From Eledone cirrhosa (Eukaryota): a DNA stretch of 25,797 nt. The position numbers and the translations under genes were made by a program. The stretch spans positions 1-25,797 of the forward strand of contig CAXHJY010000930.1 in the NCBI GenBank assembly GCA_964016885.1, in the 5' to 3' direction. This document shows positions 16,860 through 17,015 of this stretch, one piece after another. Numbering within the stretch: position 1 is the first letter of the stretch; each line of letters begins with the position of its first letter. Under the pieces are notes generated by a model that saw nothing but the letters and a program-made list of their open reading frames with translations, was not told the DNA's origin and did no database searches.

Positions 16860-17015
16860 TTCACTATTTAACGATCGTTTCTAGGGTATATATGTGTTAT
16901 AATTGGTATGCATATTCAACAGATCTATGTACAAAATTATACAAAATTATACAAATTATCAAGATTAAATATACATACCTAACACACTATATACGCCGTC
17001 TTCAGAAATAATGAA
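16860..17015 (-). ncRNA. Type I hammerhead ribozyme (Penelope pLTR type) with extended stem II
   Basis: Minus strand: UUCAUUAUUU-CUGAAGA-[stem II]-GAAA-C-GAUC-G-UU-AAAUAGUGAA. Stem I is 10 bp, stem III is minimal and palindromic, and the triplet is GUU. Predicted cut between 16870 and 16869. Confidence 0.8.

Follow-up and report, generated by a model that had tools for sequence, protein, structure and literature searches.

A predicted hammerhead ribozyme with an exceptionally long stem II in an abundant Penelope-like retrotransposon of Eledone cirrhosa

Results

The window, by which we mean the whole 25,797-nt stretch of Eledone cirrhosa DNA that was analyzed (positions 1 to 25,797 of contig CAXHJY010000930.1, assembly GCA_964016885.1), carries a 5'-truncated open reading frame (ORF) on its minus strand at 20674..22857. 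It encodes a reverse transcriptase (RT) with a C-terminal GIY-YIG endonuclease and covers approximately residues 86-813 of the 813-aa full protein, P0001, which we place in the Hydra clade. Downstream follows a 3.7-kb 3' untranslated region (17016..20673, minus strand), rich in TA/TG microsatellites and collinear with other copies at 96-97%, which doubles the usual length of a Hydra element. A hammerhead ribozyme motif occupies 16860..17015. On this minus-strand copy it is followed by 190 nt, including a terminal hairpin (16701-16682) and the element 3' end (both within 16670..16701, minus strand), where reverse transcription would start, and then by 3.3 kb of (TA)n with regularly spaced variants at the insertion end (13356..16671), an array possibly lengthened during insertion. 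A similar 2-kb array stands at the beginning of another locus, L031.

On its other side, the window holds an inverted mirror copy on the plus strand (22858..25797) that runs up to the contig end. The two copies form a head-to-head palindrome (19916-25797) centered on 22857/22858 with zero spacer, perfect over 2227 bp and 99.7% identical overall. Inverted pairs are common in this element's family; yet the palindrome of this particular contig could be a long-read fold-back artifact. Since the window is a mirror around 22857/22858, the ORF lies on both strands, so that the first-pass annotation, which had the hammerhead matching the ORF strand, was right in assigning it to the minus-strand copy but not in treating the ORF as the mark of one strand. 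At other loci, the full unit measures approximately 6.6 kb and is found in tandem and inverted arrays with one hammerhead per tandem unit; past the element 3' end, the sequence of tandem units continues for approximately 150 nt to the ATG of the 813-aa ORF, which sits 488 nt past the hammerhead core. Elsewhere in the window we noted fragments resembling other LINE retrotransposon ORFs (8668-9758 and 12803-13222), nested inverted repeats (10709-11322) that possibly represent a small fold-back element, a 33-bp tandem repeat (1043-1140), and a GA-rich region of 73/33-bp repeats (12080-12620).

P0001 is a single ORF with the RT first and GIY-YIG at the C terminus, and it contains the motifs SDKTG, CNCRNKTNC (a CxCX5C linker), CRLC (CxxC), and CNH (CxH), with no CCHH. 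A Pfam search of the ORF returned no significant match; in all of the 55 best-scoring protein matches the ORF is unbroken and 99-100% identical. An N/K/T-rich insert of approximately 90 aa (window ~21200-21700, residues ~485-575) is absent from most homologs and resembles the N-rich inserts of Adineta Penelope ORFs. Craig et al. (2021, PMC8557442) give as marks of the Hydra clade a C-terminal GIY-YIG, DKT, a CxCX5C linker, and CxxC and CxH flanking E and N, with no CCHH. Their Hydra elements also share with ours (TA)n targets and, close to the 3' end, a type I hammerhead whose stem III is palindromic; many entries of their File S2 have a mismatch, mostly U·U, at the base of stem II. They differ in having RWK, as do most aligned homologs, where P0001 has RWR, and in being generally shorter than 3 kb, a norm that our unit exceeds because of its long 3' untranslated region. 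Naiad and Nematis elements were ruled out by domain order and motifs, the endonuclease here being C-terminal where Naiads have an N-terminal GIY-YIG and a CxC domain; a non-LTR retrozyme (a short noncoding tandem unit of 150-450 bp) was ruled out because the ~6.6-kb unit is coding. Short solo copies exist and are pieces of the pLTR. Both (TA)n insertion and the tandem and inverted arrangement are seen for the element, which by its motifs we assign to the Hydra clade as a young, very abundant Penelope-like retrotransposon (PLE).

Within this element, the first-pass annotation had described a hammerhead of the PLE kind, its stem II giant and its stem III very small and palindromic. This description was borne out, the motif being a type I hammerhead of Penelope type, and all of its coordinates were verified on the minus strand, to which every position in this paragraph refers. 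The 5' strand of stem I (17006..17015, within which copy boundaries suggest the RNA start) pairs with the 3' strand (16860..16869) over 10 bp, one of them G-U. It leads into the catalytic core C3-U4-G5-A6-A7-G8-A9 (CUGAAGA; 16999..17005), the lower 5' arm of stem II (16980..16998), and the upper 5' arm (16965..16979), the last containing a donor-like AG|GTATGT with its GT at 16978, where splicing might occur. Next come an apical module (16920..16964), with a branch-like TTGAT (16962-16958) and an acceptor-like TAG (ending at 16925), and the 3' arm of stem II (16882..16919), composed of an upper part (16919-16905), a 5-nt bulge (16904-16900), and a lower part (16899-16882). GAAA (16881-16878), the palindromic stem III AACGAUCGUU (16879-16870), and the GUU triplet together span 16870..16881, and the predicted cut, after GUU, falls at 16870/16869. 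The stem I 5' strand recurs at 16820..16830, and folding predicts that this duplicate captures the stem I 3' strand in an 11-bp hairpin.

The lower part of stem II, placed by copy comparison and covariation, has 16 standard pairs and two mismatches, opening with C·A at the base, G-U, G-C, and C·C at position 4; the upper part, placed by folding and covariation, has 15 pairs. A bulged G at 16987 is private to the window copy and missing from 24 other copies, which have a 116-nt spacer (25 of the 30 loci in this comparison matched the pattern). What had been called a 45-nt loop does hold the reported 10-nt repeat but is not an open loop: it is predicted to be partly paired, with GAU/AUC and UGUA/UACA helices flanking a 4x3 internal loop, a module common to the sister families. 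A SECIS element or K-turn in this module was considered and dropped (no in-frame UGA, helix too short), and a sigma-70 promoter scan was set aside as irrelevant in an animal.

All of the expected core positions (C3 U4 G5 A6 N7 G8 A9, G12 A13 A14, A15.1-U16.1, and H17) are present, and three stems surround the core, with stem I open and stem III only 2 bp long in the monomer. The pair 10.1-11.1, usually G-C, is not Watson-Crick, stem II offers no short loop 2, and no tertiary contact between loop 1 and loop 2 was identified. Folding of the 176-nt region gives -45.2 kcal/mol (z = -5.5; none of 200 shuffles as good), and none of 5000 shuffles of the region combined the core with both a palindromic stem III and at least 7 bp of stem I. 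An Rfam scan with E values up to 5 gave 145 matches but no hammerhead, only microsatellite-driven miRNA matches; the long insert likely accounts for this. The claim that the G-U pairs betray the RNA strand holds for the element's own family, in which stem II is predicted at -44.1 kcal/mol sense and -28.8 kcal/mol antisense, but it does not extend to families A3 and A4, where the two strands lie within ~5 kcal/mol, in either direction.

The mismatched base had also been taken as a sign that this copy may be slow or dead. We found C·A in all six A-lineage representatives, in five of six B copies, and in both E copies. Because it is common to the A, B, and E families, the C·A base is a family-wide, inherited feature rather than damage. 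Slow cutting as copy-specific decay thus falls away, but as a family property it is still plausible in our models, because competing helices are predicted and no copy begins at the cut site (see below). A C·A stem II base is also given for PLE-X1_cBra in File S2 of PMC8557442, and mismatched stem II bases occur in listed as well as in active hammerheads (PMC8557442, PMC7229834, PMC3088659).

Next to this base, pair 10.2-11.2 is G-C, G-U, or A-U across the A families and C-G in E. Read outward, A3 has C·A, A-U, G-C, C·C as the first four positions of stem II; A4 and A5 have C·A, G-C, G-C, C·C; E has C·A, C-G, U-A, U·C; and D has A-U, G-C, A-U, C·C. In family C (L144:1494-1622, L140, and L163), stem II branches into two hairpins carried by a 9-bp stem, and its base is G-C or U·U. 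Seven pairs show changes on both sides among 14 A-lineage sequences, with a covariation score of 0.150 against 0.105 in shuffled alignments (0/500), a control that ignores relatedness; slid controls gave 0.02-0.08. In the same alignment, the apical helices are paired at 100% (GAU/AUC) and 96% (UGUA/UACA). Covariation across genomic copies therefore backs the pairing register proposed in the first-pass annotation. Since pair 10.2-11.2 covaries, the C·A register is also provisionally preferred over an alternative drawn by the folding program, in which the C is a bulged base 9a followed by G-C, G-C, and an unpaired UA before GAAA.

Sister family B has an equally long arm and a 72%-identical RT, and its core carries U3-A8 in place of C3-G8, with C, A, or U at N7 (1,349 matches, 34 in the control). 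Such a swap reportedly occurs in nature and is active (PMC3088659). Family B could be misread as a broken CUGAUGA hammerhead, a parse that we rejected: the true core, with U3-A8, lies 11 nt farther upstream. Across families the NUH triplet is retained as GUU, GUA, or GUC. Because the pairs near the C·A base covary and a sister family exchanges C3-G8 for U3-A8, we conclude that the fold is under selection. Three observations concern the neighborhoods of sister copies. Locus L152 has two family C copies 4.6 kb apart and no RT match; at L171:6753-9866, ORFs of another Penelope-like family with a different N terminus lie directly downstream of an A4 copy; and a link between family A5 and a 53%-identical RT was wrong, the copy ending in (TA)n before the ORF.

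The spacer of stem II, at 116-117 nt, is over four times as long as in published Hydra relatives: in the Hydra rows of File S2 (PMC8557442), spacers are at most 26 nt, and the longest there, ~54 nt, belongs to PLE-X1_sMoe. We searched the genome for core-N-GAAACGATCGT by spacer length, with the reversed pattern as a control. Spacers of 12-42, 43-72, 73-102, 103-118, and 119-148 nt gave 141, 121, 4,099, 8,875, and 155 matches, against 9, 12, 5, 8, and 10 in the control; approximately 13,000 genomic matches, compared to 13 control matches, thus have spacers of 73-118 nt. The pattern requires the core and the palindrome and so cannot itself show their conservation, and part of the 4,099 matches are B copies caught through an internal CUGAUGA word, overlapping the 1,349 counted for that family. 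Among 78 metagenome loci with related RTs, many on contigs too short to tell, 20 had hammerheads convincing by eye, all with spacers of 10-25 nt; long-spacer matches at metagenome loci L056 and L069 were rejected for their 4-bp stem I and lack of a stem closing the core. In the literature listings and open-access passages covered, we found no PLE hammerhead with a stem II this large, and the "long helix II" of an RNA-virus hammerhead paper measures 6-8 bp (PMC13725137). The motif is a real, selected hammerhead fold in a known kind of element, with a size well beyond the described range.

Where copies end bears on how the element RNA starts and is copied. A 3'-end signature that does not select for the ribozyme had 4,769 matches, of which we examined the 70 listed first; all 70 lie on one chromosome, and some represent both arms of a single insertion. 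The core is present in 48 forward copies, of which 19 end 3-8 nt before C3 (exactly 7 nt in 10 cases) and 29 extend upstream; among 25 inverted arms with the core, 22 end 0-10 nt before C3 (11 at exactly 7). An arm ending just 5' of the core is carried by 26 of the 70 loci. None of the 70 copies starts at the cut site (+136), the nearest starting at +125 and +147, and the element 3' ends lie approximately 200 nt past it. Two rough indications point to the same position: summed contig depth in run X1 rises approximately sixfold across the -7 point, where a fold-back is also seen in the run of a second organism.

Position -7 corresponds to the A at 17012, within TCATT, 7 nt before C3, and because copy ends pile up there, we place the likely start of transcription at this nucleotide. 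TCATT resembles the initiator consensus; the same letters form part of stem I, so that neither reading is independent of the other. The pile-up could also be a fold-back hot spot without a transcription start. The copied RNA templates were likely uncut, since no examined copy starts at the cut and the 3' ends lie some 200 nt beyond it, although the lack of such copies may merely reflect poor integration of cut RNAs. At the 5' ends of several copies (L155:3607, L189, and others) we observed very short tandem repeats in which the inferred RNA's first 13-20 nt recur, which suggests repeated template jumps at the RNA end.

Folding models of an RNA starting at -7 predict a helix between UUUCU and AGAAA that traps C3 and G12 (0.53-1.00 in the A families, 0.91 in D, and none in C and E); in a short construct, C3-G12 pairing is predicted at 0.96. 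The duplicated stem I strand, which lies forty bases beyond the cut, is predicted to form its hairpin at 0.94 in the whole leader. This hairpin, of 9-15 bp, recurs in 9 of 17 representatives from the same genome, which are related, and exceeds chance only to a modest degree (shuffle p 0 to 0.14); the other 8, like 15 metagenome relatives (approximately three of them misparsed), form it weakly or not at all. The palindrome AACGAUCGUU is predicted to self-dimerize at -11.8 kcal/mol. The active dimer (-100.2) lies 16 kcal/mol above the palindrome-joined inactive dimer (-116.0) with the downstream hairpin and 3 kcal/mol above it without. The hammerhead is therewith predicted to be mostly switched off. 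Families C and E, which have no C3-G12 helix, are likewise only 0.001 active in the model, and such models omit tertiary and Mg2+ contacts and often underrate active hammerheads.

Discussion

Our analysis describes a pLTR hammerhead with a stem II of 116-117 nt that likely forms the first 143 nt of the transcript. We consider it reasonably probable, judging from copy ends and folding models, that this ribozyme is a slow, gated cutter and that the RNAs which are reverse transcribed are uncut. Transcription would begin at 17012, and reverse transcription would begin approximately 200 nt downstream of the cut site and run off the RNA 5' end, yielding many short copies. Two run-off cDNAs could then join head to head, producing the head-to-head junctions. 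The two predicted helices, UUUCU with AGAAA and the downstream copy of the stem I strand with its partner, would keep the monomer inactive, and cutting would need a second RNA paired through the palindrome and probably also the element's protein.

Parts of this model have counterparts in better-known PLEs. The minimal hammerheads described by Cervera and de la Pena (2014, PMC4209133) likewise lie in the pLTR, have a palindromic stem III, and are predicted to act as dimers; they show low activity in vitro and include a U3-A8 variant in Schistosoma, comparable to our family B. Their helix II, however, has 6-8 bp, a conserved G10.1-C11.1, and one bulged base, in contrast to the 31 pairs of the lower and upper stem, C·A base, and apical module found here. 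In the anole Poseidon element PAc, as reported by Frangieh et al. (2024, PMC11167929), the RT initiates at an internal site and mainly uses uncut RNA as its substrate, and cutting by the ribozyme requires protein. PAc and our element would share an RT start 3' of the hammerhead on uncut RNA, the extension of both target strands, and AT-rich targets. PAc belongs to a different clade, and its short hammerhead overlaps the start codon, whereas ours lies 488 nt upstream of the ATG.

A further reading, compatible with the gated cutter and held only tentatively, is that the GT at 16978, paired within stem II, is a 5' splice site, the spliced RNA being translatable mRNA and the unspliced RNA the copying template. 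Joining this GT to a TTTAG 35 nt before the ATG would excise 427 nt, including half of the ribozyme and the RT start site. This would shorten the leader from 495 to 68 nt and lower the number of upstream AUGs from nine to one, with the predicted folding energy going from -119.8 to -7.2 kcal/mol. Each of the nine A and B representatives has a donor-like word (GTATGT, GTAAGT, or GTAAAT) at +32 to +36 relative to the inferred start, and ATTTAG|TTGAGCTC, approximately 35 nt before the ATG, is common to A1 and B. These nine cases are not independent, as A and B are related (background, 0.27 words per 50 nt), and the strict donor word is missing from all six representatives of C, D, E, and F. The acceptor is ambiguous too, since the TAG at 16925 would give an intron of 40-54 nt (one inexact genomic match). 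No splice joint was found in the sequencing-run contigs compared, which cannot show RNA ends. The long spliced junction has no match among genomic copies; PLEs are known to keep introns. Drosophila virilis Penelope has an internal promoter that lacks a TATA box and, 46 nt past the start, a 75-nt intron (Schostak et al. 2008, PMC2377424). An internal TATA-less pLTR start with a donor tens of bases downstream is what we infer here as well, although the D. virilis intron is demonstrated and ends at the 5' side of helix I (PMC4209133), whereas our putative donor lies inside stem II.

Carried further, stem II might be a switch at the transcript head that hides the splice donor, with the palindromic stem III coupling two uncut templates like a retroviral dimerization signal; as a whole, we regard this extension as doubtful. 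Classical processing, in which transcripts reading through a tandem are cut by the ribozyme to yield template RNAs of unit length or circular form, has been put forward for PLEs generally (PMC4209133) and would suit the common ~6.6-kb tandems with their one hammerhead each. A read-through RNA has the full 10-bp stem I, and before the downstream hairpin forms, the active dimer is predicted at 2.4 kcal/mol above the best fold. We nevertheless think it unlikely, for the copied RNAs probably span the site uncut, as argued above from copy starts and 3' ends.

We hold it to be quite unlikely that cleavage turns on translation by removing the 116-nt hairpin from the leader, the 5'-OH product being translated without a cap. 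The hairpin starts 14 nt past the inferred cap, and in RNA viruses self-cleavage in the 5' untranslated region is reported to drive cap-independent translation (PMC13725137), but here the 3' product would keep 353 nt, six upstream AUGs, and a predicted -71.2 kcal/mol. Very unlikely, finally, is a vestigial ribozyme that has lost catalysis, its hairpin being kept as a protein-binding or promoter element or hitchhiking in a young family: the noncanonical C10.1·A11.1, the predicted inactivity of the monomer, the absence of copies ending at the cut, and the unimpaired insertion in vitro of anole Poseidon hammerhead mutants (PMC11167929) would agree with it, but the change from C3-G8 to U3-A8 with a free N7, the retained NUH, and the covarying stems I and II fit selection on catalytic geometry, and an axolotl hammerhead with a U·U base and a 2-bp stem III cuts at 22% per hour in monomeric form, with more cutting by the dimer (PMC7229834).

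These results indicate that descriptors with short stem II limits miss entire hammerhead families, and a long stem II missed in this way may bear on the "HHR_half_core" Naiads of Craig et al. (PMC8557442). For questions about the role of PLE hammerheads and the retention of introns, this family offers young copies by the thousand, with ends that place the probable RNA start at single-nucleotide resolution, together with a natural covariation series that includes a core swap. If the stem II switch with templates coupled through stem III were true, it would account for both the -7 head-to-head junctions and the introns that PLEs retain.
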